Source: Dehalococcoidia bacterium (lineage in GTDB: Bacteria; Chloroflexota; Dehalococcoidia; Lucifugimonadales; GCA-002694895). From it: 64,000 nt of DNA. A program made the position numbers and the translations under genes. The stretch spans positions 1,073-65,072 of the forward strand of contig JBJLGN010000021.1 of NCBI GenBank assembly GCA_045564835.1, written 5' to 3'. This document shows positions 3,428 to 51,083 of this stretch, in pieces. The notes under the pieces were generated by a model. The model worked only from the letters and a program-made list of their open reading frames with translations, made no database searches and was not told the origin of the DNA. Position 1 is the stretch's first letter. The number at the start of each line of letters is the position of its first letter.

Positions 3428-4663
3428 ATGTCAGAATTCTTCGAAGTTGTTAGTCCAAATGAGGCTATCTCAAAAATGATATCACACAATGATTTTCCTA
3501 CCTTGAAATCTGAAACAGTTGATACTATTTCATGTCATAATCGTATAACTTCTGAAGATGTAATTTCAAACTCTGATTTACCTCATTTTGACAGATCATC
3601 AATGGATGGGTATGCAATCAAATCTAATGATTCAACAGGAGTTTCAAGTTCTTCTCCAAATTATATTAAAGTCACAGAAGAAATAAAAATGGGACATACT
3701 CCAAGTAAAAAATTAAAAAATGGAGAATGTGCAAGAATATTTACCGGCGGGATGATCCCGCAAGGTGCTGATTCGGTGATTATGGAAGAAGACACAGAAA
3801 TTTTAAATGATAATTTTATCGAAATTAAAAAATCTCTTTCAGTTGGCGAAAATATTATTTTCAAAGGAGAAGAAACAAAAAAAAATAAACTTATATTGTC
3901 CAAAGGTCACAAAATAAGATCTCAAGACATAGGAAGTATGCTTGAATCTGGTATAACAAAGTTAAAAGTTTATAAAAAATTAATAATTGGGGTTTTATCT
4001 TCTGGTGATGAATTGCTTGATCCTACAGAAGATTTACAACCAGCTAAAATTAGAGATATAAATACGTATACAATTTCTACATTAATAAAATCAACAGGAC
4101 ATAAAATCAAAAATTTTCCTATCATGCCTGACAACTTTGAGTCTCAGCTAGATCAGGCAAAAAAAGCTTTCAATGAATGTGATATCCTTATATTTTCTGC
4201 GGGTAGCTCGATAAGCTATAGAGATACAACATCAAAAGTAATCACAAATTTAGGATTACCAGGAATTCTAGTACACGGTGTGTCAGTTAAACCTGGTAAA
4301 CCTACAATACTTGCAATCTGCGACAAAAAAATAATAATAGGATTACCAGGTAATCCAGTGTCTGCAAGCATGATTTTTACTAATATAATTCGCCCAATTA
4401 TATACAGTACATATAATTTCGAGCCATTAGAACCATATGTGTTATGCCAATTAAACGATGATATAAGTTCTCACACAGGTAGAGTTGATTATGTTCCAGT
4501 AAAAATATCAATTAAAAACGGAATCTCTTATGCACAACCAATATTAGGAAAATCCAATTTAATAAATACGTTGGTTCATTCTGATGGGTATATTACAGTT
4601 CCTTCTGAAAAAAGAGGGGTATATAAAAACAGTACTGTTAAGGTAAGTATTTATGAACAATAA
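3428..4663 (+). CDS. moeA: Molybdopterin molybdenum/tungsten-transferase MoeA
   Basis: Motifs DRSSMDGYAI, SAGSS and GLPGNPVSA. The 411 aa length is typical. Confidence 0.85.
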   Translation: MSEFFEVVSPNEAISKMISHNDFPTLKSETVDTISCHNRITSEDVISNSDLPHFDRSSMDGYAIKSNDSTGVSSSSPNYIKVTEEIKMGHTPSKKLKNGECARIFTGGMIPQGADSVIMEEDTEILNDNFIEIKKSLSVGENIIFKGEETKKNKLILSKGHKIRSQDIGSMLESGITKLKVYKKLIIGVLSSGDELLDPTEDLQPAKIRDINTYTISTLIKSTGHKIKNFPIMPDNFESQLDQAKKAFNECDILIFSAGSSISYRDTTSKVITNLGLPGILVHGVSVKPGKPTILAICDKKIIIGLPGNPVSASMIFTNIIRPIIYSTYNFEPLEPYVLCQLNDDISSHTGRVDYVPVKISIKNGISYAQPILGKSNLINTLVHSDGYITVPSEKRGVYKNSTVKVSIYEQ

Positions 4664-6572
4664 TAAAAATAGAAATTATTATTTGGATGATATACCTATT
4701 GAAATAGCTTTAGAAAAATATTTCAACTCTCTTGAAAAATACCTAAGTGTTATCGATCATGAAGAAATACAAGTTACTGATTCGAATAACAAAATAACAT
4801 ATGAACCAATATTTGCAAAAATTTCTTCCCCAAATTTTAACCTGGCTGCAATGGATGGAATTTCAATTGATCATAAATCAACAATTGGGGCAACTGAAAC
4901 TTCACCTATAACCTTAAATTCAAATAAATTTTCATGGGTTGATACAGGGGACCCTATAGATGACAATCATGATGCAGTCATAATGATCGAAGACATTTCT
5001 AAAATATCTTCTCAAAATATCAGAATTTTTTCATCTGTACCTTCAATGTATAACGTAAGAGAAATTGGAGAAGATTTAATCCAATCTGAGATGATAATTC
5101 CTGAAAATACTAAAATAAACCATTTCGATATTGGAGTATGTCTTGCAGGTGGAGTTGATAGGATAAAGATTAAAAAACCTCTTTGCTCTAAATTTATTCC
5201 AACCGGAAATGAACTAATCAAATTAGGAGATGAATATTCCAAGGGAGATTTAATAGAATTTAACAGCTATGTTATTAATGGAATGTTAGATGAAATAGGA
5301 GTAATTACTGATACTTCTCCAATCATAAAAGATAAAAAAACAGATATAAAAAATGAAATATCTAAAGCTGTTAAAACTTTTGATCTTATTATAGTGAGTG
5401 CAGGTTCATCTGCAGGATCTGAAGATTACACAAAAGAAATAATAGAGGAATTGGGAGAAGTAATAGTACATGGAATTTCGATTAAGCCTGGGCATCCAGT
5501 TATTTTAGGTAAAATAAAAGATAAACCTGTAATTGGACTTCCAGGATATCCTGTTTCAGCAATTTTAATCAATGAATTAATAATAAAACCACTAATTGAA
5601 AAGAAATTAAAATATAAAATACACAAAAATGAACCTTTAAAAGCAAAATTAGCAAGAAAATTAAACTCCACAATTGGTGAAGATGAGTATATTCGGGCTA
5701 GTGTTGGAAAAATAAATTCAGAATACGTGGCTGTTCCATTACCAGGTGGAGCAGGAGTGATAAGCTCAATTCAAAAAGCAAATTGTTTAATAAAAATACC
5801 CAAAAATATCGAAGGCTATCAAAAAAACGAAGTTATAGAATTGTCTCCTTTAACTAATATTCAAAGTATAAATAACACAATTATTTGTAGCGGAAGCCAT
5901 GATTTAGTATTAGATTTACTTAAATCTTTTCTTTTAAAACAAGGGTTAGGCTACAATATGGCTATAAATCCTATTGGTAGTTTAGGGGGGTTATTAGCAA
6001 TAGATCAAAATATGTGCCATATAGCGGGAACACACATTTTTGATCCGGAAACAAATCAATATAACACCTCATACATAAACCAATTTATTAAAAACAACAA
6101 AGTAAAAACAATAACTCTTGTAGATAGAATTCAAGGAATAATAGTTCCTAAAAATAATCCTAAAAATATTAAAAAGTTAGATGATTTCAATAATCCTGAA
6201 TTGATTTTTGTTAATAGGCAAAAAGGTTCCGGAACAAGAATCTTACTCGATCACTTATTACAAAAAGCAAATATAAGTCCTCAATGTATACAAGGATATG
6301 ACAATGAAAAAAATTCACATCTTGCAGTATCGTATGCAATCCATTCTAAAAATGCAGATTACGGAATAGGGATTATGTCTTCTGCAAATGCATATGATTT
6401 AGGATTTGTCCCACTTAAAGAAGAACGCTTTGACCTTGTGATACCAGAAAATATATATGAACTAGATTACATACAAAAATTATTAGAGATTATTAACTCA
6501 GCAGAATTTATAAATTCTATAAATTCTATTGGAGGATATAATACTAAAAATACTGGTAAGGGTGTAAATTGA
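4653..6572 (+). CDS. moeA: MoeA paralog fused to a C-terminal periplasmic-binding-protein-like (oxyanion-binding type) domain
   Basis: The N-terminal ~400 aa has AAMDGISI, SAGSSAGSEDY and GLPGYPVSA. The C-terminal ~230 aa (IICSGSHDLVLD...NRQKGSGTRILLD...) resembles the PBP-like domain fused to MoeA in archaea and some bacteria. Confidence 0.8.
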   Translation: MNNNKNRNYYLDDIPIEIALEKYFNSLEKYLSVIDHEEIQVTDSNNKITYEPIFAKISSPNFNLAAMDGISIDHKSTIGATETSPITLNSNKFSWVDTGDPIDDNHDAVIMIEDISKISSQNIRIFSSVPSMYNVREIGEDLIQSEMIIPENTKINHFDIGVCLAGGVDRIKIKKPLCSKFIPTGNELIKLGDEYSKGDLIEFNSYVINGMLDEIGVITDTSPIIKDKKTDIKNEISKAVKTFDLIIVSAGSSAGSEDYTKEIIEELGEVIVHGISIKPGHPVILGKIKDKPVIGLPGYPVSAILINELIIKPLIEKKLKYKIHKNEPLKAKLARKLNSTIGEDEYIRASVGKINSEYVAVPLPGGAGVISSIQKANCLIKIPKNIEGYQKNEVIELSPLTNIQSINNTIICSGSHDLVLDLLKSFLLKQGLGYNMAINPIGSLGGLLAIDQNMCHIAGTHIFDPETNQYNTSYINQFIKNNKVKTITLVDRIQGIIVPKNNPKNIKKLDDFNNPELIFVNRQKGSGTRILLDHLLQKANISPQCIQGYDNEKNSHLAVSYAIHSKNADYGIGIMSSANAYDLGFVPLKEERFDLVIPENIYELDYIQKLLEIINSAEFINSINSIGGYNTKNTGKGVN

Positions 6573-7180
6573 AAAATTCTATACACGGAATTATTTTAGC
6601 TGGAGGAAAAAGTGAAAGACTTGGAAGGGATAAAGCTTTGGAATCATTTAACGGCAAGCCATTAATATCAAATGTTATATCCGCTATAAGAGAGCATGTT
6701 AATAACATAAGTATAGTGGTTAATAAAAACACAAGAAAAGAAGATCTTTATTTTCTTGATAATGTAAGTTTTATTGTAGATAAATACAAAAACGCAGGAT
6801 CACTTGGAGGTATTTACAGCGGATTGGAAAAGTCACCAAATCAAAATATTATAGTCTTTGCTTGCGACATGCCATTTATTTCAGGGAAAATAGTTTCATT
6901 TATGAAAAATAATATCACTTCAAAGTATGACATAATAATACCTGAAACAAATGGGTTTAAACATTCTACTCACGCCATTTATAGTAAAAATTGTTTACCG
7001 ATAATTAAAAAACAATTAATTAAAAAAGAATATAAAATTTCTAAAATATTCGACAAATGTAATACAAAAATACTTAAAGAAAACGATATCAATAAAATTG
7101 AATTAAATACAAAAAGCTTTTTCAATATTAATTACGATCACGATTTAGATAAGGCAAATCAAATATTATCAAATGAATAA
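6569..7180 (+). CDS. mobA: Molybdenum cofactor guanylyltransferase MobA
   Basis: GIILAGGKSERLGRDKA nucleotide-binding motif. TTG start overlaps the moeA2 stop. Confidence 0.8.
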   Translation: MKNSIHGIILAGGKSERLGRDKALESFNGKPLISNVISAIREHVNNISIVVNKNTRKEDLYFLDNVSFIVDKYKNAGSLGGIYSGLEKSPNQNIIVFACDMPFISGKIVSFMKNNITSKYDIIIPETNGFKHSTHAIYSKNCLPIIKKQLIKKEYKISKIFDKCNTKILKENDINKIELNTKSFFNINYDHDLDKANQILSNE

Positions 7181-7460
7181 AATTAAAATTAAAATAGAAT
7201 TCTTTGGAACAGCAAAGCTAATCGCCAAAAAAGATTTTATATATGTATCTACAGAAAAAAAAATTGAAGAAAAAGATCTTGTAGAAATAATAGCTTTAGC
7301 CATACCTGAATTTGTAGATAAAATAATTGAAAAGAATACCTTTGCATTAAAAAAAAGTTATAATCTTGGAATTAATGGTGTGAAAAATACTGGAAACAAA
7401 CATCTTTCATTAAAAAATAATGACTCTATACTAATATTTAGTAGTCAATCAGGAGGTTGA
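7173..7460 (+). CDS. moaD: MoaD/ThiS-family small sulfur-carrier-like protein
   Basis: 95 aa ending in ...SSQSGG followed directly by TGA. The C-terminal Gly-Gly is diagnostic. It sits immediately upstream of aor. Confidence 0.7.
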   Translation: MNKIKIKIEFFGTAKLIAKKDFIYVSTEKKIEEKDLVEIIALAIPEFVDKIIEKNTFALKKSYNLGINGVKNTGNKHLSLKNNDSILIFSSQSGG

Positions 7461-7463
7461 TTT

Positions 7464-9242
7464 TTGCAAGGATACAACAACAAATACCTGCTAATTAATT
7501 TAGACAACCATACTTCTGAAGAAAAAATATTAGATGGTGAAATACTTGCAAATTATATTGGAGGAACAGGGTTAAGTACCTATTTGTTACATAAATATTC
7601 ATCTCCCAAAGTAGACTCTTTTGCCCCTCAAAATCCACTTGTATTCGCTTCAAGCCCTTTAACTGGAACCAAACTAACAACAACAAGTAAATTTTCTATT
7701 GCTACAAAATCACCTCTAACTGATTTTATAGGAGACTCGATGTCATCAAGTCATTTTTCAGACAAATTAAAAAAAACAGGATTTGATGCATTAGTGATTA
7801 TAGGTAAATCAAATAAAAAATCATTAATCAAAATCTCAAACTCAAATATCAGCTTTGTAGATGCATCAAAAATATGGGGGAAACATACAAGCGAAACAGA
7901 AATGATTTTAAATGAAAAAATTGGCAGTAATTATTCTTATGCAACGATAGGTCCTGCAGGTGAAAATTTAGTAAGGTTTGCTGGAATAAAAAATGATGGA
8001 GGAAGAATGGCCGCACGAACAGGCGTTGGCGCAGTTATGGGTTCAAAAAATATTAAAGCAATTGCAGTAGGCGGAGATATAAGCATTTCAATATCTAATC
8101 CTCAAAAAATAAATGATATAAGAAAAAAATTATCCAAAAAAAGCCTTGGAGAGAGTACTGAAAAATATAGAACAACAGGCACTACAATAAATATGTCATT
8201 GCTAAATAGATTAGAAATGTTACCCACTAATAATTTCTCAGAATCTATATTCAAAGAATCAGAAAAAATTGAAGGTGAAAATTTAATAAAAAATCATTTC
8301 TCCGAAAAAGCTCATTGTGCAAACTGTACAATTGGATGTGAAAAAATTTTTGTTACTAATGATAAAAATGAAAAAATAAAATCAAGACTTGAATTTCAAA
8401 CTACAGCAAGCTTAGGCTCGAATATTGGGGTAAGTAACCCAAATTGGATAATTAGAGCTGCTAAGCTTTGTGATGAATTAGGCTTGGACACAATAAGCAC
8501 AGGCGTAACAATAGGATGGGCTATAGAAGCTTCTAAAAATGGACATCTTAAACACAGTATAGATATTAGTTCCGAATCAAAATTATTAAATTTAATAAAA
8601 AACATCGCTTATAGGAAATCTGTTGGAAATTTACTGGCTGAAGGATCAAAATTAGCATCAGATATTACTGGAAAAAATTCTAATTTATACGCAATGCATG
8701 TAAAAGGACTTGAAATACCTTCTTATGATCCCAGAAACTTGCCAGCTCTAGCTTTAGCTTTATCTGTAAGTACAAAAGGAGCATGTCATAACAGAGCAAG
8801 TGCGTATGATATTGATTTTAACAACAAGCAAATATTTGAAGATCCGACACTTATAGCAAAAAAAACAAAAGAAAGTGAAGATTTGTCTGCAGTTATAGAC
8901 TCAATGATATGGTGTAAGTTTCTAAGGAAATCATTTGATGATTTATATGCTGAAAGTTCTGATATTTATTCATTAATAACAGGTGAACAATTTACAGAAA
9001 CCCATATTAAAATTGCTGGAGAAAGAATAAATAATTTGAAAAAATTGTTTAATATCGAAAATGGATGGTCAAGAATTGATGACAATTTACCAAATAGATT
9101 ACTTGAAAGTAATAACAAAAAAAATCAAATCATATCTAAAAACTTCTTGGATTCAATGATTAGTAATTATTATCATTTCAGAGAATGGGATAAGAATGGT
9201 AATATACCTAATAATAAACTTAAATCTTTGAATATAAGTTGA
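7464..9242 (+). CDS. aor: Aldehyde:ferredoxin oxidoreductase family (tungsto/molybdo-pterin) catalytic subunit
   Basis: N-terminus ...NKYLLINLDNHTSEEKILDGEILANYIGGTGLSTYLL. CANCTIGC (CxxCxxxC) plus a later KGACHNRA Cys provide the [4Fe-4S] ligands. Length 592 aa. Confidence 0.9.
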   Translation: MQGYNNKYLLINLDNHTSEEKILDGEILANYIGGTGLSTYLLHKYSSPKVDSFAPQNPLVFASSPLTGTKLTTTSKFSIATKSPLTDFIGDSMSSSHFSDKLKKTGFDALVIIGKSNKKSLIKISNSNISFVDASKIWGKHTSETEMILNEKIGSNYSYATIGPAGENLVRFAGIKNDGGRMAARTGVGAVMGSKNIKAIAVGGDISISISNPQKINDIRKKLSKKSLGESTEKYRTTGTTINMSLLNRLEMLPTNNFSESIFKESEKIEGENLIKNHFSEKAHCANCTIGCEKIFVTNDKNEKIKSRLEFQTTASLGSNIGVSNPNWIIRAAKLCDELGLDTISTGVTIGWAIEASKNGHLKHSIDISSESKLLNLIKNIAYRKSVGNLLAEGSKLASDITGKNSNLYAMHVKGLEIPSYDPRNLPALALALSVSTKGACHNRASAYDIDFNNKQIFEDPTLIAKKTKESEDLSAVIDSMIWCKFLRKSFDDLYAESSDIYSLITGEQFTETHIKIAGERINNLKKLFNIENGWSRIDDNLPNRLLESNNKKNQIISKNFLDSMISNYYHFREWDKNGNIPNNKLKSLNIS

Positions 9243-9243
9243 A

Positions 9244-10872
9244 ATGCAGGACAATCAAAACAGAAATACAAAAGAATTATTAACTAGTAACTTTAAGCCA
9301 CAAAAAAGTTCACTTCTTCAATCATTGCACATGATTCAAAAAGAAAACGGTTACGTATCAGAAAATGATATGCTAGTGCTATCTAGATACTTAAAAGTTT
9401 CTAAAAGTGAAATATACGGTGCAATAACCAGTTATCCAGAAATTCATACATCTATAAATTCAGAACTTCAAGAATGCACTGGTCTCTCTTGTTATATTAA
9501 TAACAGTAATATTAGTAATAATACTACTGATTGTAAATTTAAATGTTTTGAAGGGCCGATAGCAATTCAAAATCATAATATATACTCTAAATCAAGTGGT
9601 AAATACATAGAGAAAAATTCACTGAAAACCCCAATTATCGATTCTTCTGCAATACTTGATAAACCCATATTATTAGAGAATATGGATCACAAAAAAGACT
9701 ATGAATCATATAATTCAGTTTATAAATTCAGTGCTTTAAAAGAAACTTTAAATAAAGATCCACTTGAAATAATAAATATTATTGAAGAGTCAGGACTTAG
9801 AGGAAGAGGTGGCGCCTATTTCCCAACTGCCACAAAATGGAAAATGGCTAGTGGTAATAAATCTATTCAAAAATATTTAATTGTAAATTGCGAAGAAGGT
9901 GAACCTGGAGTATTTAAAGATAGATTGATAATGGAGAATATGCCTTACATGTTGATTGAAGGAGCAATAATAGCTTCCTATGCAACTAACTGCACTGATT
10001 TAGTTTTTTATATTAACGGAGAAGCAGAAAAAAGTTTTAAAACATTGAAAAATGCTTTAATAAAATTGCAACAAAATAATATTATCGATGAAAATGGTAT
10101 GATTTTTAATTCTTCTTACAAATTGAAGATAAAATTAGAATCTGGTGCGGGGGGGTACGTCTGTGGAGAAGAAACAACACTTCTTAATACAATGGAAGGT
10201 AATAGAAGAGAACCAAGGTTAAAACCACCCTTCCCTACTGAAAAAGGAGTTTTCAGCTTACCTACTATAATTAACAATGCTGAAACATTATGTAATGTTA
10301 CTTATATATTAACCCATTCAGTAAAAGATTATAAAATGGTTGGTGATAAAGATTTTCCAGGAACTAAATTATTAAGTGTTAGTGGACATTTCAAAATGAA
10401 TGGAATTATAGAAATTCCTATGGGAATTACAATTAATGATTTATTAGATAAAACAAAATTAGAAAGCCCCACTGATAAAATAAAATACTTAGCCATTGGT
10501 GGTCCTTCAAGTGGACTATTGCCAAGATCTGAATTTGAAACAAGTTTGAAAGGTGGGTTTTTAAATTCAAATGGCATAATGATGGGAGCTGGAGGTTTTA
10601 TTGGTATAAATTCAACGATTGATCCAATAGATATCATTATTAATTTAGCTGAGTACAATGCAGACGAATCATGTGGAAAATGTACTCCATGCAGAGAAGG
10701 TACTCCAAGATTGGTAGAGCAATTAAAACAAATAAAATCAATTTCAGATAAAGATAAATATAAAGATGAATTGAATTTATTAGCAGAAACAGTTAATCTA
10801 GCATCACTTTGTGGCTTAGGACAAGCAGCTGGAAATCCTATAATTAGCTATCTAAAATATTTTTATGATTAA
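9244..10872 (+). CDS. fdsB: NAD(H)-binding diaphorase subunit, NuoE-like domain fused to NuoF-like domain (FdsB-type)
   Basis: GLRGRGGAYFPTATKWK (FMN/NADH site) and ESCGKCTPCREG ([4Fe-4S]). The N-terminal NuoE-like region has CTGLSC...CKFKC. It starts 1 nt after the aor stop. Confidence 0.85.
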   Translation: MQDNQNRNTKELLTSNFKPQKSSLLQSLHMIQKENGYVSENDMLVLSRYLKVSKSEIYGAITSYPEIHTSINSELQECTGLSCYINNSNISNNTTDCKFKCFEGPIAIQNHNIYSKSSGKYIEKNSLKTPIIDSSAILDKPILLENMDHKKDYESYNSVYKFSALKETLNKDPLEIINIIEESGLRGRGGAYFPTATKWKMASGNKSIQKYLIVNCEEGEPGVFKDRLIMENMPYMLIEGAIIASYATNCTDLVFYINGEAEKSFKTLKNALIKLQQNNIIDENGMIFNSSYKLKIKLESGAGGYVCGEETTLLNTMEGNRREPRLKPPFPTEKGVFSLPTIINNAETLCNVTYILTHSVKDYKMVGDKDFPGTKLLSVSGHFKMNGIIEIPMGITINDLLDKTKLESPTDKIKYLAIGGPSSGLLPRSEFETSLKGGFLNSNGIMMGAGGFIGINSTIDPIDIIINLAEYNADESCGKCTPCREGTPRLVEQLKQIKSISDKDKYKDELNLLAETVNLASLCGLGQAAGNPIISYLKYFYD

Positions 10873-13591
10873 AGATGATATGAAAAAAATAAATATACTT
10901 ATAGATGGAAAGAAAATATCTGTTCCACAAAATTATACAGTGCTTGATGCAATTAACAAGAATAAGCAATATATTTCTCAATTGTGTAAAGACCAAGATA
11001 TGAAAGCTTTAGGAGCTTGTAGAACTTGCTTGGTAGAAATCGAAGGAATAAGAGGCTTGCCAGCCTCTTGTTCTCAACCAGTAAGTGATGGAATGAAAAT
11101 CAAAACATATGGTGAGAATCTAGATAAAATAAGGAATAATGTATTGTCTTTAACTTCAGGTATGTTAACAGAAAGTAAATCTAAAAAAGATTACAAAGAT
11201 TTAAGTAAAGCCGTAAATCATTATGGAGTTAACGACAATAAATACGCTGGCCGAAAAAGAGAAAAAACTGATAAGAGTAATACAGTATTTGATATAGCAA
11301 TGGAAGATTGTATATTATGCGGGAGATGCACAACAGGATGCCAAGAAGGTGCACAATTTATTGGTGCGATAGATATTCTTGGAACAGGTAAAAATACGAA
11401 AATTGGTACTTTTAATGACGAACCTCTAGCTGAGTCTGTATGCACAACTTGTGGCCAATGTTTATCAGTTTGCCCTACAGGAGCTATAAAGAAAAAACCT
11501 GAACCAAAAAATGTTACAAAATCTGTAACCACAACATGTCCATACTGCGGTGTAGGTTGTGGTATTAACATAGAAGTGGACAAAAACAACGAAATGGTAA
11601 ATGTCACTGATGACCCTAACAACAAATCAAGCTTAGGTATGTTATGTGTAAAAGGCAGATTCGGATATAGATTTGTCCAACATAAAGACAGGATAAAAAC
11701 ACCATTAATTAAAAAAGATGGAATATTTTTCGAGTCATCTTGGGAAGAAGCAATAGATTTAATAGCTGAAAAATTAAGTGGATATATTGGTAATTCATTT
11801 GCTACTTTGTGTTCTGCAAAAGCCACCAATGAAGACGGTTATATACAACAAAAATTTTCAAGAGTTGTAATGAAAAGTAATAATATTGATCACTGTACAA
11901 GACTTTGCCATTCTCCTTCTGTAGAAGCAATGTTAAAGTCTTTAGGTAGTGGAGCTACTAGTAATTCATATATAGATTACGAGGAAGCTGGTTGCTTGAT
12001 TATTGCGGGATCAGACGCAAATTCAAACCACCCTGTTGCAGCTTCAAGAATGAGAAGAGCTGTTATTGAAAAAGGAGCTAAATTAATTATTATTAATCCT
12101 AGAAGAATAGAAATGTGTGATTACGCTGATCTATGGCTTCGCCCAAAGCCTGGTACAGATGTTGCCTTACTAAATAGCATAGCAAAAGTTATTTTAGATA
12201 AAAACCTACAAAATAATAAATTTATATCAGAGCGAACTGAGGGATATGATGAATGGAAAAAAATCATAGATGACTACAGTCCCGAAAAAGTTGAAAAAAT
12301 CACTGGAGTTAAAGCAGAAGATATAATCCAAGCTGCAGAGTATTATGCAAAACCAAAATTTGGTGGATCTTGTTTGATTTGGGGAATGGGTATTACTCAA
12401 CACACAAATGGAACAGCTAATGCTCATTCTCTTTTAAATCTATCATTGGTAACTGGAGAATTAGGAAAACCAGGATCAGGAATATCACCTTTAAGAGGTC
12501 AAAACAATGTGCAAGGCTGCGGTGATGCAGGTTGTCTCCCTAATTCATTTTCGGGTTATCAGGTAATTGATCAGGAAACAGTAAATAAATTTAAAAAAGA
12601 ATGGAAAACTGATGAACTACCAATTAAGCATGGATATGTAGTAACAGATATGATCAAAAAGATTGAAGAAGGGATTGTAAAAGCAATGTATATTACTGGT
12701 GAAAACCCATTATTAAGTGAACCTGATTTATCTCACGCTGAAGAAACATTTAAAAAATTAGAGTTCTTAGTAGTTCAAGATCTATTTTTGCATGAAACAG
12801 CTCAAATTGCAGATGTAGTTTTACCTGCGTCTAGTTTCGCTGAAAAAGAAGGAACTTTTACTAATAGTGAAAGAAGAGTGCAAAGAGTAAGAGCTGCAAT
12901 AAACCCTGTAGGAGAATCAAAACCTGACTGGGAAATAATTCAATTAATAGCAAATAAAATTGCTGATAAATTGTCGATTGATTTAAAAAAACAATTCAGT
13001 TATGAATCTCCATCTGAAATATGGGATGAAATGTCTAATTTGACTCCAAGTATTTCAGGTATTAATTATGAAAGACTTAACAACGAAGGTGGTATCCAAT
13101 GGCCATGTCCTGATAAGCACCACCCAGGAACACGATATTTGTATGAATCAGACTTTCCAAGAGGAGACAGAGCCAAATTCTTTGGATACAAACAAGGTCC
13201 AAGAGCTGATGAAATTCCAACAAAAAGATACCCTCTAACTTTAATTACTGGTAGAATTTTGTACCATTGGCATGGAGGAACTATAACAAAAAGATCTGAA
13301 TATTTACTATCAAAAGCCAGTGAACTTGAAGTATCAATGAACCAAAAAGATGGCGATAAATTTGGTATTAAAAATGGTGATTGGATAAGTGTTGAGTCAA
13401 AGCGTGGAAAACTAGAAGCAAGAGCTTATATTACTGATAATATGTCTGTTGGTGAAATTTTTGTTCCTTTCGTAAAATTGCAAAATCACGCAGCTAATTT
13501 TTTGACCAATCCAGCTGTTGATCCAGATTCTAAAATTCCTGAATATAAAGTATGTGCAGTAAAAATATCTAAAGTTCTTACAAAAGTATAA
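10865..13591 (+). CDS. fdsA: NAD-dependent formate dehydrogenase alpha subunit (Mo/W-bis-PGD), Cys type
   Basis: N-terminal 2Fe-2S motif (CRTCLVEIEG) and ferredoxin motifs CILCGRCTTGC and CTTCGQCLSVCPTGA, then CPYCGVGCG. Active-site context CTRLCHSPS has Cys, not Sec. Overlaps fdsB by 8 nt. Confidence 0.9.
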   Translation: MIKDDMKKINILIDGKKISVPQNYTVLDAINKNKQYISQLCKDQDMKALGACRTCLVEIEGIRGLPASCSQPVSDGMKIKTYGENLDKIRNNVLSLTSGMLTESKSKKDYKDLSKAVNHYGVNDNKYAGRKREKTDKSNTVFDIAMEDCILCGRCTTGCQEGAQFIGAIDILGTGKNTKIGTFNDEPLAESVCTTCGQCLSVCPTGAIKKKPEPKNVTKSVTTTCPYCGVGCGINIEVDKNNEMVNVTDDPNNKSSLGMLCVKGRFGYRFVQHKDRIKTPLIKKDGIFFESSWEEAIDLIAEKLSGYIGNSFATLCSAKATNEDGYIQQKFSRVVMKSNNIDHCTRLCHSPSVEAMLKSLGSGATSNSYIDYEEAGCLIIAGSDANSNHPVAASRMRRAVIEKGAKLIIINPRRIEMCDYADLWLRPKPGTDVALLNSIAKVILDKNLQNNKFISERTEGYDEWKKIIDDYSPEKVEKITGVKAEDIIQAAEYYAKPKFGGSCLIWGMGITQHTNGTANAHSLLNLSLVTGELGKPGSGISPLRGQNNVQGCGDAGCLPNSFSGYQVIDQETVNKFKKEWKTDELPIKHGYVVTDMIKKIEEGIVKAMYITGENPLLSEPDLSHAEETFKKLEFLVVQDLFLHETAQIADVVLPASSFAEKEGTFTNSERRVQRVRAAINPVGESKPDWEIIQLIANKIADKLSIDLKKQFSYESPSEIWDEMSNLTPSISGINYERLNNEGGIQWPCPDKHHPGTRYLYESDFPRGDRAKFFGYKQGPRADEIPTKRYPLTLITGRILYHWHGGTITKRSEYLLSKASELEVSMNQKDGDKFGIKNGDWISVESKRGKLEARAYITDNMSVGEIFVPFVKLQNHAANFLTNPAVDPDSKIPEYKVCAVKISKVLTKV

Positions 13592-14299
13592 TTAATCAGA
13601 GACCTCAATTCTTAGCCTCTTATTATTTTTACCTTTACTTTGATGGCCTGTCATTTTGATATACCCAACTTCTGAAGTATTATGAACATGAGTCCCACCA
13701 TCAGCTTGTAAATCTAATCCTTCAATATCAACAATTCTGATTTCATTTATACCTTTGGGTAGTAAATTAATTTTAGTTCTAATTAAATCAGGAATGTCGA
13801 ATGCTTCATCTCTTGGTAAATCATATACTTTAATATTCCTTGACAACTCAATTTCTTTATTTATTTTTTCTTCAACTTCTTTAGAAAAATCAACCGACAT
13901 TTCTTCAAGCTCAAAATCCATTCTTCCAGATAAGGGTTTCATATCACCTCCTGTTACAGACGCACCATAATCTCTCCAAACAACTCCACATAAAATATGT
14001 AAAGCTGTGTGCGTTCTCATCAGTTTATATCTATGGTCCCAATCAATAATCGAATCAACTTCTAATCCAATAGCAGGTTTTGTTCCTTCTATGATATGGA
14101 TGATTTGACCATCAATTTTTTTTAAATTCTTAACAACAAATTCATTTTTCTCAAATTTTAATATTCCTTTATCAGAAGGTTGTCCACCACCTCCTGGATA
14201 AAACACAGTTTGATCTAAAATAACACCGTGATCATTAACCTCATTAATCTTTGACTTACATTGCTTTAAATAACTATCTTTGTAACATAAAACATCCAT
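13592..14299 (-). CDS. alaX: Alanyl-tRNA editing protein AlaX (AlaX-M type)
   Basis: HTALHIL and GGTHV editing-domain zinc motifs. Length 235 aa. Confidence 0.8.
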   Translation of the reverse strand: MDVLCYKDSYLKQCKSKINEVNDHGVILDQTVFYPGGGGQPSDKGILKFEKNEFVVKNLKKIDGQIIHIIEGTKPAIGLEVDSIIDWDHRYKLMRTHTALHILCGVVWRDYGASVTGGDMKPLSGRMDFELEEMSVDFSKEVEEKINKEIELSRNIKVYDLPRDEAFDIPDLIRTKINLLPKGINEIRIVDIEGLDLQADGGTHVHNTSEVGYIKMTGHQSKGKNNKRLRIEVSD

Positions 14300-17153: not shown

Positions 17154-18413
17154 GTGAAAAATATTATCGATTCAGAAAGTAAAAAAAACAAAATAAATTT
17201 CTCCAATCCTTTAACTTCAATTAAATCAAGCACAGACTTCAAATACCTTTGGTTAGGCCAAGGAGGGCAAGGATTTGCTATGTGGTCAGAAATGATTGCA
17301 AGAAATTGGCTAACTTACCAATTAACAGGGTCTGCATTAGCTATAGGTATTGTCAATTTATTTAGAGCTATACCTTTTATAACAATAGGTTTATTTGGAG
17401 GAGTTGTCGCCGACAGATTCCCGAAAAAAAAGACTCTGATGATTATTCAAATATGGTCACTATTGATATATTTTGTAATGCTTATTTTGATTTCTACTGA
17501 TTTAATAAAACTTTGGCACGTCTATGCTACAGCTTTTTGTCTTGGATTAGGAATGGCTATTAATCAACCTCTTCGTACATCATTCATACCGCAGATGATT
17601 GACGAGAAAAATCTGTTAAACGCATTGTCATTAAATTCTATGGCTATGGGAGTTACAAGATTAATAGGACCAGCAGTAATTGGTTATATAATAGCTATTT
17701 CCGATAACAATGTTGCCCCTGCGTATATAGTTTCAACAGTATCATATTTATTTGTGATATACACAACTTTAAAAATAAATTTAAAAGGAAATCCTACAGA
17801 AAAACATACTAAATCTCCCATGAATGATTTTACAGATGGTATAAAGTACATGGTATTTGAAAACAGAACGGTTTTATGGCTAGTAATACTTGCCCTGGGG
17901 CCACTAGCATTTGGTTTCAGTTATATAAGCCTTTTACCAGTATATGTGGATGAGAAACTAAATCTTGGAGCTGATGCGTTTGGAGCTATTCAATCTATAT
18001 CATCAATAGGAGCTCTTTTAAGTACTTCTCTTTTAGCATCCTCAGGCGATATCAAAATCAAAGGCAAACTATTACTTGTAACTACGATCATTTATGGACT
18101 TGGTGTAATATTGATGGGATTCACTGGAAAAATATTTATAGCGTTTGGAATTGCAATATTTATTGGAGGCTCTCAATCTGTTTTCAGGACATGCGTTTCA
18201 AGTACAATAGTTTCAGTAACAGCAGAAAAATACAGAGGAAGAATGATAAGTATGACTATGTTAGACATGGGAGTTGCGTCAGTTGCTTCTATACTTGCTG
18301 GAAGAATAACAGATTTAATTAGCGTCTCATATGGAATGCTTTTTTGTGGGGTTATGTGTACTATTGTTGGGCTAACAACATTTGCAGCTCATAGAAAATT
18401 AATTAAAATTTAA
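17154..18413 (+). CDS. MFS transporter
   Basis: About 12 hydrophobic segments, and GGVVADRFPKKK, the MFS loop 2-3 motif. Confidence 0.75.
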   Translation: MKNIIDSESKKNKINFSNPLTSIKSSTDFKYLWLGQGGQGFAMWSEMIARNWLTYQLTGSALAIGIVNLFRAIPFITIGLFGGVVADRFPKKKTLMIIQIWSLLIYFVMLILISTDLIKLWHVYATAFCLGLGMAINQPLRTSFIPQMIDEKNLLNALSLNSMAMGVTRLIGPAVIGYIIAISDNNVAPAYIVSTVSYLFVIYTTLKINLKGNPTEKHTKSPMNDFTDGIKYMVFENRTVLWLVILALGPLAFGFSYISLLPVYVDEKLNLGADAFGAIQSISSIGALLSTSLLASSGDIKIKGKLLLVTTIIYGLGVILMGFTGKIFIAFGIAIFIGGSQSVFRTCVSSTIVSVTAEKYRGRMISMTMLDMGVASVASILAGRITDLISVSYGMLFCGVMCTIVGLTTFAAHRKLIKI

Positions 18414-18487: not shown

Positions 18488-18513
18488 ATTAAAATAAACC
18501 CATCAGGTGTAAA

Positions 18514-19284
18514 ATGAGTTCTTATAATTATGACAGCTTTCCTCTAGATTTTGATATGCAAGCATTTGTAGATTTCCCTACTATCGCAAATGCTGGAACC
18601 AAAGCACCTGAAGCTAAGGTATATAATATCAAGGAGAAAAAGTGGGAAGAGCTTTCAACATATTGGAAAGAAAAAACTACTATCATAGAATTTGGTTCCA
18701 TAACCTGATCAGAATGTGCCCTGGCGGCGCCGGGATTTAATAAATTAGTCGAAGAATTTGGAGACAAATTTAATTTTGTATTTGTATATACCAGAGAAGC
18801 TCATCCTGGTGAAAAAATACCCCACCTTAGTTCTTTTGAGCAAAAAATTGAACATGCAAAATTAATGACAAAAAAATATATTAACAGAACGATGCTAGTC
18901 GATTCTTTAGAAGGTGATGTTCATAAAGCTTATGGTAGACTCCCTAATATGACATATATAGTGAACAGATATGGGAATGTTATCTACAAATCAGATTGGA
19001 CAGACCCTTCTACAATAAAAATGGCTTTAAATCATTATCAAGAAGAACGAAAAATGATGGAAGATAAAATTAGAGTTACACCTTATTACATAGAATGGCA
19101 GCCAATGAGGAAAAATGATACTGAAGAATTCATGACAATATTATTAAACGATGCCGGACCAAAAGCAATTAAAGATTTCATAAATTCGGCAAATCACTAT
19201 ACAGGTCCAATACAATCAAATTCAAGTTTAGGAAAAGCCATGGGTAAAAAATTACAAGATTGGTTAGATAAACAAAGCTACTAA
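18514..19284 (+). CDS. Thioredoxin-fold, iodothyronine-deiodinase-like selenoprotein (in-frame UGA = Sec at 18706-18708), 256 aa
   Basis: Track ORFs 18514..18708 and 18865..19284 share a frame. The 52 codons between them are open. Read-through gives ..TTIIEFGSIT-U-SECALAAPGFNKLVEEFGDKFNFVFVYTREAHPGE..VDSLEGDVHKAYGRLPNMTYIVNRYGNVIYKSDW... A GC-rich hairpin follows the UGA. Confidence 0.7.
18719..18734 (+). promoter_or_regulatory. Candidate bacterial SECIS stem-loop
   Basis: CCCTGGCGGCGCCGGG starts 11 nt after the UGA. It forms five or six G-C pairs (719-721 with 732-734, 723-724 with 730-731) with a bulged U722 and a G-rich apical loop (CGGCG). It is the only run of this kind in an otherwise very AT-rich region. 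Confidence 0.55.
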
Positions 19285-19288
19285 AACA

Positions 19289-19438
19289 ATGGAAGAAGGT
19301 AAAAAATTGAATGACAATATAAATATAGGAATGAAAAACAAATTAAATCAATTATTCAAAAAATTTAGTTTGATATTATCTGCTCTACTTGGTTTGTTTT
19401 TATTAATCTATATACTAGTTTTGATTTTACTCGTTTAA
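19289..19438 (+). CDS. Possible small tail-anchored membrane protein (49 aa)
   Basis: MEEGKKLNDNINIGMKNKLNQLFKKFSLILSALLGLFLLIYILVLILLV: polar N-terminus plus one TM helix. Not in the track because it is under 60 aa. Support is weak. Confidence 0.25.
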   Translation: MEEGKKLNDNINIGMKNKLNQLFKKFSLILSALLGLFLLIYILVLILLV

Positions 19439-38262: not shown

Positions 38263-38295
38263 AAAATGTCGGGCTACAAAACAGCCCGACATTTT
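38263..38295 (-). terminator. Intra-operon hairpin (attenuating terminator) between aapJ and aapQ
   Basis: A 13-bp perfect stem, AAAATGTCGGGCT (38263-38275) with AGCCCGACATTTT (38283-38295), around a 7-nt loop. T-rich tail on the minus strand. Confidence 0.55.
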
Positions 38296-51007: not shown

Positions 51008-51083
51008 TGGAGCGGGAGACCGGATTCGAACCGGCGACATTCTGCTTGGAAGGCAGATACTCTAGCCGCTGAGTTACTCCCGC
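51008..51083 (-). tRNA. tRNA-Gly (anticodon UCC), CCA encoded
   Basis: The reverse complement folds as GCGGGAG-TA-ACTC-AGCGGCTA-GAGT-A-TCTGC-CTTCCAA-GCAGA-ATGTC-GCCGG-TTCGAAT-CCGGT-CTCCCGC-T-CCA. This is a perfect 76-nt cloverleaf. Confidence 0.92.

Follow-up and report, generated by a model that had tools for sequence, protein, structure and literature searches.

An in-frame TGA in a deiodinase-like gene of a Dehalococcoidia bacterium is almost certainly a selenocysteine codon

In a 64-kb stretch of contig JBJLGN010000021.1 from a Dehalococcoidia bacterium (hereafter the window, meaning this whole stretch), an in-frame TGA at positions 18706-18708 almost certainly encodes selenocysteine (Sec), in a gene related to those of the animal iodothyronine deiodinases. 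Translation of positions 18514-19284 (plus strand) gives one frame, 256 sense codons long and closed by a TAA, in which this TGA is the sole internal stop. The two listed open reading frames (ORFs) on either side of it, 18514..18708 and 18865..19284, share one frame and the 52 codons that separate them (18709-18864) are free of stops, as a sequence-only reading of the window had described, down to the peptide it quoted, which proved exact. Reading through the TGA places the proposed Sec at residue 65 of the product, in the context EFGSIT-U-SECALAAPGFNK. A six-frame scan of the window for TGA codons between long open stretches returned this locus as the only credible candidate, the only one to combine coding-like sequence with a GC-rich hairpin downstream; no second selenoprotein gene in the 64 kb was credible, the other TGA-split frames being antisense or formed by neighbouring genes that share a frame. 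We consider it very probable that this UGA is read as Sec within one deiodinase-like gene, and hold with similar confidence that the product is one cytoplasmic protein of 256 residues that belongs to the prokaryotic deiodinase-like selenoprotein family, with a thioredoxin fold and a PF00837 domain.

The TGA is retained at the same column throughout the relatives of the gene. A DNA scan in which each GTDB species was represented by one genome gave 318 loci, of which 80 were kept and, together with the close orthologue L001 and the window itself, made up a set of 82; an in-frame TGA within EFGS-x-T-U-x-x-C is present in every one of them. The hosts belong to Chloroflexota (Dehalococcoidia, SAR202, Ktedonobacteria, Chloroflexia and Thermomicrobiales), Acidobacteriota, Planctomycetota, Myxococcota, Verrucomicrobiota, Bacillota, Eiseniibacteriota, Rokubacteria, Actinomycetota / Acidimicrobiia and Alphaproteobacteria, and at least eight phyla carry loci of the TGA form. 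The closest loci, at 81-92% amino-acid identity, come from metagenome-assembled genomes (MAGs) of marine Chloroflexota/Dehalococcoidia. The position of Cys68 is equally constant, with a TGY codon at alignment columns 10-12 in 82 of 82 sequences, and the UxxC motif by which the prokaryotic deiodinase-like family is recognised is found here as U65-S-E-C68.

On the protein level, a search yielded 207 relatives, and the nearest 120 clusters (90% identity) were looked at in detail. Gene calls of 145-228 residues that start right after the Sec column account for 117 of these clusters, in line with the earlier expectation that gene callers would mis-annotate such a locus, while one cluster is full-length with W at the column (P0001) and two are full-length with Cys. 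P0001, which comprises 244 member sequences, has W in its translation, yet its DNA reads TGA. Full-length homologues with Cys at the Sec column include P0004 and P0160 (both CPFC), P0168 (CPLC), P0059 and others, so that the column check proposed in the sequence-only reading, including its search for Cys-containing homologues, came out positive on both counts. When a profile was run against 1.84 billion representatives, 2,437 clusters were found at E <= 0.001 and 855, spread over many phyla, at E <= 1e-10 (clusters at 50% identity); the full-length clusters among them mostly have Cys at the Sec column, several as CxxC. Within the nearest subfamily, as represented by the nearest 120 clusters, Cys forms are rare and Sec forms vastly outnumber them. 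To our knowledge, such a predominance of Sec forms is unusual among bacterial selenoprotein families.

Directly downstream of the UGA lies a hairpin that resembles a bacterial selenocysteine insertion sequence (SECIS). Bacterial SECIS elements have been described as stem-loops that follow the UGA and whose small apical loop contains a guanosine (PMC1088965), and the hairpin at 18720-18734, a stem-loop near the UGA with a small G-containing loop, corresponds to that description. A SECIS search in this region had been suggested beforehand, and a hairpin of bacterial type does lie there, at the canonical distance and with covariation. The 45 nt from the TGA onward align without gaps in all 82 loci. 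Over the helix columns (13-20 pairing with 24-31) 90.9% of the cells are standard-paired, compared to 29-49% after a shift of the 3' arm by 1-3 columns, and double-sided changes occur in five of the eight pairs (58 cells). The covariation amounts to 0.318 versus at most 0.081 in the shifted registers, a value that was matched in none of 500 shuffles, and RNAalifold recovered the core helix independently. Among the compensatory changes are some that alter the protein, with G-C to A-U accompanied by Ala to Val and U-A or U-G to A-U accompanied by Leu to Gln; as these paired changes alter amino acids jointly, the motif C-(G/A)-L-A-A-P is partly shaped by the RNA.

The codons of the stem point to selection on the RNA as well. 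In the window, with a GC content of ~30% overall and of 0.19 at third codon positions, the stem is written with GCC, CTG, GCG, GCG and CCG, codons with a synonymous usage of 7.3%, 2.7%, 5.4%, 5.4% and 7.1% respectively, and the joint probability of this choice is ~2e-7. Seven low-GC relatives (81-92% amino-acid identity) keep both the TGA and the hairpin, and the changes in their stems (C-G to U-G and U-G to U-A) preserve pairing. A GC-rich stem that is held despite strong AT mutational pressure argues for ongoing selection for an RNA element. Strong hairpins, defined by a 6-bp stem with at least five G:C pairs and a loop of 3-7 nt, occur only three times on the plus strand of the window, and one of them starts 11 nt after the TGA. 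As for the two other strong GC hairpins, GCGGGATGATCCCGC at 3747-3761 lies inside the MoeA gene, and CGGGCTACAAAACAGCCCG at 38270-38288 lies in the gap between the genes for a solute-binding protein and a permease in a minus-strand ATP-binding cassette (ABC) transporter operon, where it may serve as an intercistronic stabiliser or attenuator.

Compared to the SECIS of E. coli fdhF, the hairpin is likewise an in-ORF stem-loop, with an 11-nt spacer in the window and a G in its small apical loop, but the loop reads GGC instead of GGUC and there is no evident bulged U. The upper stem-loop of the minimal fdhF SECIS is reportedly situated 11 nt from the UGA, as determined by Liu et al. in 1998. The stem counts 6 bp in the window versus 8 bp in most relatives, in which the spacer is then 9 nt.

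A number of results weigh against a SECIS-directed reading of the UGA. When the folding energy of the hairpin was compared, for 8 loci, to dinucleotide shuffles of the respective short GC-rich segment, it was not significant (z -0.3 to -1.6), so thermodynamics is uninformative here and it is covariation and codon usage that carry the argument. Rfam gave no SECIS or other RNA family, either for the whole window at gathering thresholds or for 18680-18800 at a permissive E-value. Furthermore, locus L082, the only close Cys form, which encodes P0004 (44% identity; L082:180-950, on a single 1.3-kb contig), has TGC at the column and nevertheless keeps all 8 hairpin pairs, so the hairpin is not strictly tied to the TGA. 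We read L082 as a recent Sec-to-Cys change that left a fossil SECIS behind, but another role of the hairpin or a base-call error could account for it too. As a control for the Cys form, in which loss of the hairpin was expected and not seen, L082 is therefore either uninformative or points to a fossil SECIS. No selA, selB, selD or tRNA-Sec gene was found in the 64-kb window (Pfam on 40 long ORFs and a tRNA scan), and a tRNA scan of the sequence flanking 60 related loci found no tRNA-Sec either; since 64 kb is a small fraction of a genome, the missing sel genes weigh little. The gene neighbourhood finally adds nothing in support, as across the 82 loci only a transporter of the major facilitator superfamily (MFS) recurs (10 loci), which mainly reflects synteny among close relatives, and no neighbour is conserved between phyla.

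The family assignment follows from searches with the read-through protein, in which Cys was written for the TGA. Pfam assigns residues 20-161 to PF00837 (T4_deiodinase) with 52.7 bits (cutoff 27; E 4.8e-14), while AhpC/TSA (PF00578) matches less strongly with 31.3 bits (cutoff 26) and Redoxin (PF08534) remains slightly under its cutoff (24.8 versus 26.6 bits). The only NCBIfam match is NF038285, 'deiodinase family protein', with 59.6 bits against a cutoff of 250 bits. A comparison to all PDB sequences ranks mouse Dio3 (4TR3, E 7.6e-7) and Dio2 (9H48, E 1e-6) highest, and the TGA column aligns exactly with the catalytic Sec of Dio3 (Sec170, in the motif FGSCT-C, with Cys in the crystal construct). 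For the structure we relied on an AlphaFold2 model of the orthologue P0001, which is 86% identical to the window protein, in place of a model of the window protein itself; it has a predicted local distance difference test (pLDDT) score of 86.4 and a predicted template modelling score (pTM) of 0.85. Its top Foldseek matches are again 4TR3 and 9H48, followed by the CxxC oxidoreductases ResA/TlpA/DsbE and by peroxiredoxins. The structural matches span ~180 of the 256 residues, with a TM-score normalised by the query of 0.54, and the identity to animal deiodinases is only ~20%. The earlier assignment to the deiodinase/peroxiredoxin-like thioredoxin fold, in which the TGA takes the place of the catalytic Sec, is thus upheld by PF00837, by the Dio3 and Dio2 alignments and by the P0001 model.

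Two sequence blocks link the protein to the animal deiodinases (DIO), namely FGSxT-U and (Y)xxEAHP. The second, YTREAHP, aligns with IYIEEAHP of Dio3, and its residues Y92, R94, E95, A96, H97 and P98 are invariant in the subfamily alignments. The Dio3 counterparts are numbered Y197, E200 and H202, which we take to be the numbering of Schweizer et al. 2014. The peroxiredoxin motif PxxxT/SxxC is absent, with Ile58 and not Pro at -7 from the Sec, and the motif is of the deiodinase type FGSxT-U. No hydrophobic segment is present in the N-terminus, MSSYNYDSFPLDFDMQAFVDFPTIANAGTKAPEAK, so the membrane anchor of animal DIO is lacking, and residues 1-17 are disordered in the P0001 model. Beyond the thioredoxin-fold domain the protein continues in a C-terminal extension that is modelled as helices 165-183, 203-214, 216-227 and 238-252, mostly with high pLDDT, and in which P190, E194, F206, L210 and G215 are conserved within the subfamily. 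This extension lies outside the coverage by the deiodinase structures, and no Pfam match was found past residue ~162.

Zhang, Fomenko and Gladyshev were the first to report deiodinase-like selenoproteins of prokaryotes, in 2005 and in metagenomic data from the Sargasso Sea, along with bacterial SECIS elements and homologues that have Cys (PMC1088965), and a 'Deiodinase-like protein, PF00837, UxxC' is listed without function in reviews of 2022 and 2026 (PMC9312934; PMC13188914). Compared by its published description, that family shares with the window gene the PF00837 domain, a catalytic position occupied by UGA, the UxxC motif, the in-ORF SECIS with a small G-containing loop, the existence of Cys homologues and an occurrence in marine bacteria. 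The window gene has U-SEC, where most relatives have U-P-[YF]-C, and a C-terminal extension of ~90 residues, two traits that the published examples may or may not share. Judged from its sequence, the locus displays every trait by which the prokaryotic deiodinase-like family is defined.

It is not a deiodinase of the animal type. With DIO1-3 it has in common the thioredoxin/peroxiredoxin-like fold, the strand-helix junction FGSxT-U, the Y..EAHP block and the AYG block, but it has no N-terminal anchor, carries UxxC instead of the UPPF or UPSF of DIO, has an insertion after EAHP that is 9 residues shorter in the alignment to Dio3, and adds a C-terminal helical domain; moreover, the SECIS of animal DIO is a kink-turn element in the 3' untranslated region, whereas the one proposed here is a hairpin of bacterial type that lies within the ORF. 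With TlpA/ResA/DsbE and the peroxiredoxins it shares a redox residue at the N-terminus of helix alpha1, the UxxC paralleling the CxxC spacing, but it has Sec in place of the N-terminal Cys, is cytoplasmic without signal peptide or anchor, and is nearer to the deiodinases in sequence. The catalytic domain is also homologous to that of NF038285, a model of 347 residues with an N-terminal membrane region (E 3.5e-16, model positions 179-324), but the ~175 N-terminal residues of that model are absent here and the two represent different subfamilies.

Several of the related loci carry a further deiodinase-like selenoprotein gene, a paralogue situated ~0.9 kb from the main one, with its REAHP motif at ~2339 in L039, ~2078 in L046, ~4128 in L045 and ~2490 in L069. 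The paralogue carries the motif LEFGSIT-U-PPFVGEVP, which is nearer to the 'UPPF' of animal DIO. In L045 its Sec column reads TGG (Trp) and in L069 its upstream part is broken by stops, while the window has no second deiodinase-like paralogue.

A possible course of decoding and catalysis may be outlined. The hairpin would act as a bacterial SECIS and recruit SelB.GTP.Sec-tRNA(Sec) as the UGA enters the A site. In the protein, Sec65 at the N-terminus of helix alpha1 (FGSIT-U-SE-C) would attack an oxidised or electrophilic substrate, with peroxides and disulfides as candidates and organohalogens as a further possibility. Cys68 would then resolve the selenenic or selenenyl intermediate to an intramolecular selenenylsulfide, to be reduced in turn by a thiol reductant, for instance thioredoxin, while the invariant Glu95 and His97 (Glu200 and His202 of Dio3) may aid proton transfer or contact the substrate.

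Concerning the substrate, one may ask whether the Sec-dominant UxxC subfamily represents a reductive dehalogenase (deiodinase or debrominase) that depends on selenium, is widespread in bacteria and acts on natural aromatics carrying iodine or bromine, or rather a general oxidoreductase of peroxides or disulfides. For the animal DIO, Sec is of great importance in dehalogenation, and the nearest subfamily is nearly all of the Sec type (117 truncated, one read-through and two Cys among the nearest 120 clusters). Dio3 and Dio2 are the nearest proteins both in sequence and in predicted fold, the catalytic blocks FGSxT-U and Y..EAHP are conserved, and the host clade, marine Dehalococcoidia, lives in an organohalogen-rich habitat. 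However, the UxxC motif and the structural matches to ResA, TlpA, DsbE and peroxiredoxins point to generic thiol/selenol redox chemistry, the insertion specific to deiodinases is shortened, no dehalogenation-related neighbours were found around the gene, and the authors of the 2005 study expected a redox role other than thyroid-hormone deiodination (PMC1088965). On balance we regard dehalogenation as an unlikely function. If it were true, the thyroid-hormone deiodinases would have in this subfamily their functional counterpart among prokaryotes, and perhaps their ancestor, and marine Dehalococcoidia would have a dehalogenation route that is independent of cobalamin.

That the gene and its SECIS are intact but yield no functional selenoenzyme, either because the lineage lost its Sec machinery or because it rarely has selenium, so that the UGA mostly acts as a stop or is read as a near-cognate amino acid, seems improbable to us. 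Such a relic would fit a window without Sec machinery and with no other selenoprotein gene detected in its 64 kb, and the alpha subunit of formate dehydrogenase (FDH) encoded in the window is indeed Cys-type, as had been noticed before. Nevertheless, the low-GC relatives discussed above retain the TGA and the hairpin with changes that preserve pairing, in a GC-rich stem under AT pressure, and the absence of sel genes from 64 kb carries little weight. The Sec trait is present in some Chloroflexi (PMC1794560).

Still less probable is a pseudogene, in which the TGA would be a nonsense mutation or an assembly error in a Cys-type thioredoxin-fold gene. A lone in-frame stop does resemble a fresh nonsense mutation, TGA is one base away from TGT and TGC, a close homologue has TGC, and the window again offers no Sec machinery. 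The substitution pattern is difficult to reconcile with this. Between the gene and L001, differences at codon positions 1/2/3 number 8/6/33 upstream of the TGA and 19/9/75 downstream, and across the six close orthologues L001-L006 changes at the third position dominate on both sides, while none of the six has lost the ATG, the TGA or the stop or differs in length. This pattern indicates that both halves of the gene are under purifying selection in a shared frame and, together with the retention of start, TGA and stop, excludes a pseudogene as well as two separate genes. The same TGA column in 82 of 82 independent loci from many phyla and the covarying hairpin of rare codons at SECIS distance speak against a pseudogene too, and leave Sec decoding as the reading we prefer.

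A genome-wide reassignment of TGA to sense (Trp or Gly, codes 4 or 25) is hardly credible: the W called in the 244 members of P0001 and an AT-richness shared with many code-4 organisms might suggest it, but 7 of the 50 long ORFs in the window end in TGA, no other long ORF has a credible internal TGA, homologues have Cys at the column and not Trp or Gly, and the nearest relatives are Chloroflexota/Dehalococcoidia MAGs, a group that is not known for a reassigned code. The three TGA stops that the sequence-only reading had cited, at 6570-6572 (MoeA2), 7458-7460 (MoaD-like) and 9240-9242 (aldehyde:ferredoxin oxidoreductase), are all real, and the MoaD-like ORF ends in ...SQSGG-TGA. The C-terminal Gly-Gly of MoaD must be the end of the protein. 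Based on these TGA-terminated ORFs and the lack of another TGA-interrupted gene, reassignment of the whole code is excluded.

Well supported is the conclusion that the locus represents an annotation correction in a family known since 2005 and not a discovery, as the earlier suspicion that the family is not new is borne out by its being catalogued ever since (PMC1088965; PMC13188914). Of the nearest 120 clusters, 117 have no deiodinase annotation and are mostly called 'hypothetical protein', and one large cluster has the TGA translated as Trp; because the calls begin past the Sec codon, the catalytic half of the family is largely invisible in databases, and no NCBIfam model would name or rescue the gene. 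The gene likely marks a low-GC marine Dehalococcoidia lineage as a user of Sec. It also offers a clean case of dual coding for RNA and protein, with a GC-rich SECIS that is conserved nearly base for base across phyla inside a genome of ~30% GC. As it uses Sec almost exclusively and stands close to the deiodinases, the subfamily makes a reasonable target for biochemistry, 20 years after the family was discovered. The features of the gene and of a nearby cofactor cluster are collected in Table 1.

Table 1. Positions of the selenoprotein gene, its parts and signals, and the genes of the cofactor and oxidoreductase cluster in the window
Feature	Position	Strand	Basis
Single coding sequence, 256 codons + TAA, deiodinase-like selenoprotein MSSYNYDSFP...KQSY	18514..19284	+	translation; orthologues L001-L006
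In-frame TGA, candidate Sec codon U65 in FGSIT-U	18706..18708	+	translation; homologue column; Dio3 alignment
Cys68 (TGT), redox partner of U65 in the U-S-E-C (UxxC) motif	18715..18717	+	translation
SECIS-like hairpin CCUGGC-GGC-GCCGGG, 6 bp, loop GGC 18726-18728, 11-nt spacer from UGA	18720..18734	+	minimum-free-energy fold; covariation
Thioredoxin-fold / T4_deiodinase domain, residues 20-161	18571..18996	+	PF00837; Dio3/Dio2 matches; AlphaFold2 model
Y-T-R-E-A-H-P motif, residues 92-98, = Dio3 Y197...E200-A-H202-P	18787..18807	+	alignments; Dio3 alignment
C-terminal helical extension, residues 165-256	19006..19281	+	P0001 model; subfamily conservation
Shine-Dalgarno-like AGGTG, 4 nt 5' of ATG	18505..18509	+	read from sequence
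Promoter-like TTGACA-18 nt-TATATT, ~27 nt 5' of start codon	18458..18487	+	consensus match only, weak
Molybdenum/tungsten-cofactor and oxidoreductase cluster	3428-13591		
MoeA	3428-4663		
MoeA-PBP fusion (MoeA2, TGA stop 6570-6572)	4653-6572		
MobA-like protein	6569-7180		
MoaD-like protein, ends GG-TGA	7173-7460		
Tungsten-type aldehyde:ferredoxin oxidoreductase (AOR)	7464-9242		
NuoF-like flavoprotein	9244-10872		
Formate-dehydrogenase-like molybdopterin (FDH alpha) subunit, Cys-type, TRLCHSPSV at Sec position	10865-13591		

The promoter-like site upstream of the gene agrees with the consensus at 11 of 12 positions and is the best match of the region, but 13 such sites occur in the region versus 8.9 +/- 3.8 in shuffles, so it is weakly supported. 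Further upstream lies the gene of an MFS_3 transporter (17154-18413, +), which is syntenic in L001 and L003-L006; MFS genes are also found near the gene in the distant loci L030, L041, L060 and L071. Other neighbour clusters were rejected as spurious overlapping ORFs in GC-rich loci. On the downstream side, an ORF of 49 residues with a hydrophobic C-terminal tail (19289-19438, +) starts 5 nt past the selenoprotein stop and is conserved in L003 (58% identity), L002 and L004.

Elsewhere in the window, the end of the cofactor cluster is followed by the gene of a stand-alone AlaX-like editing protein (13592-14299, -), which consists of a tRNA-synt_2c C-terminal part and tRNA_SAD. A 5S rRNA (469-585, -) and an adjacent thioredoxin/AhpC-TSA-like protein (616-1188, +) are situated at the edge of the window, and a tRNA-Gly(TCC) is encoded at 51008-51083 (-).

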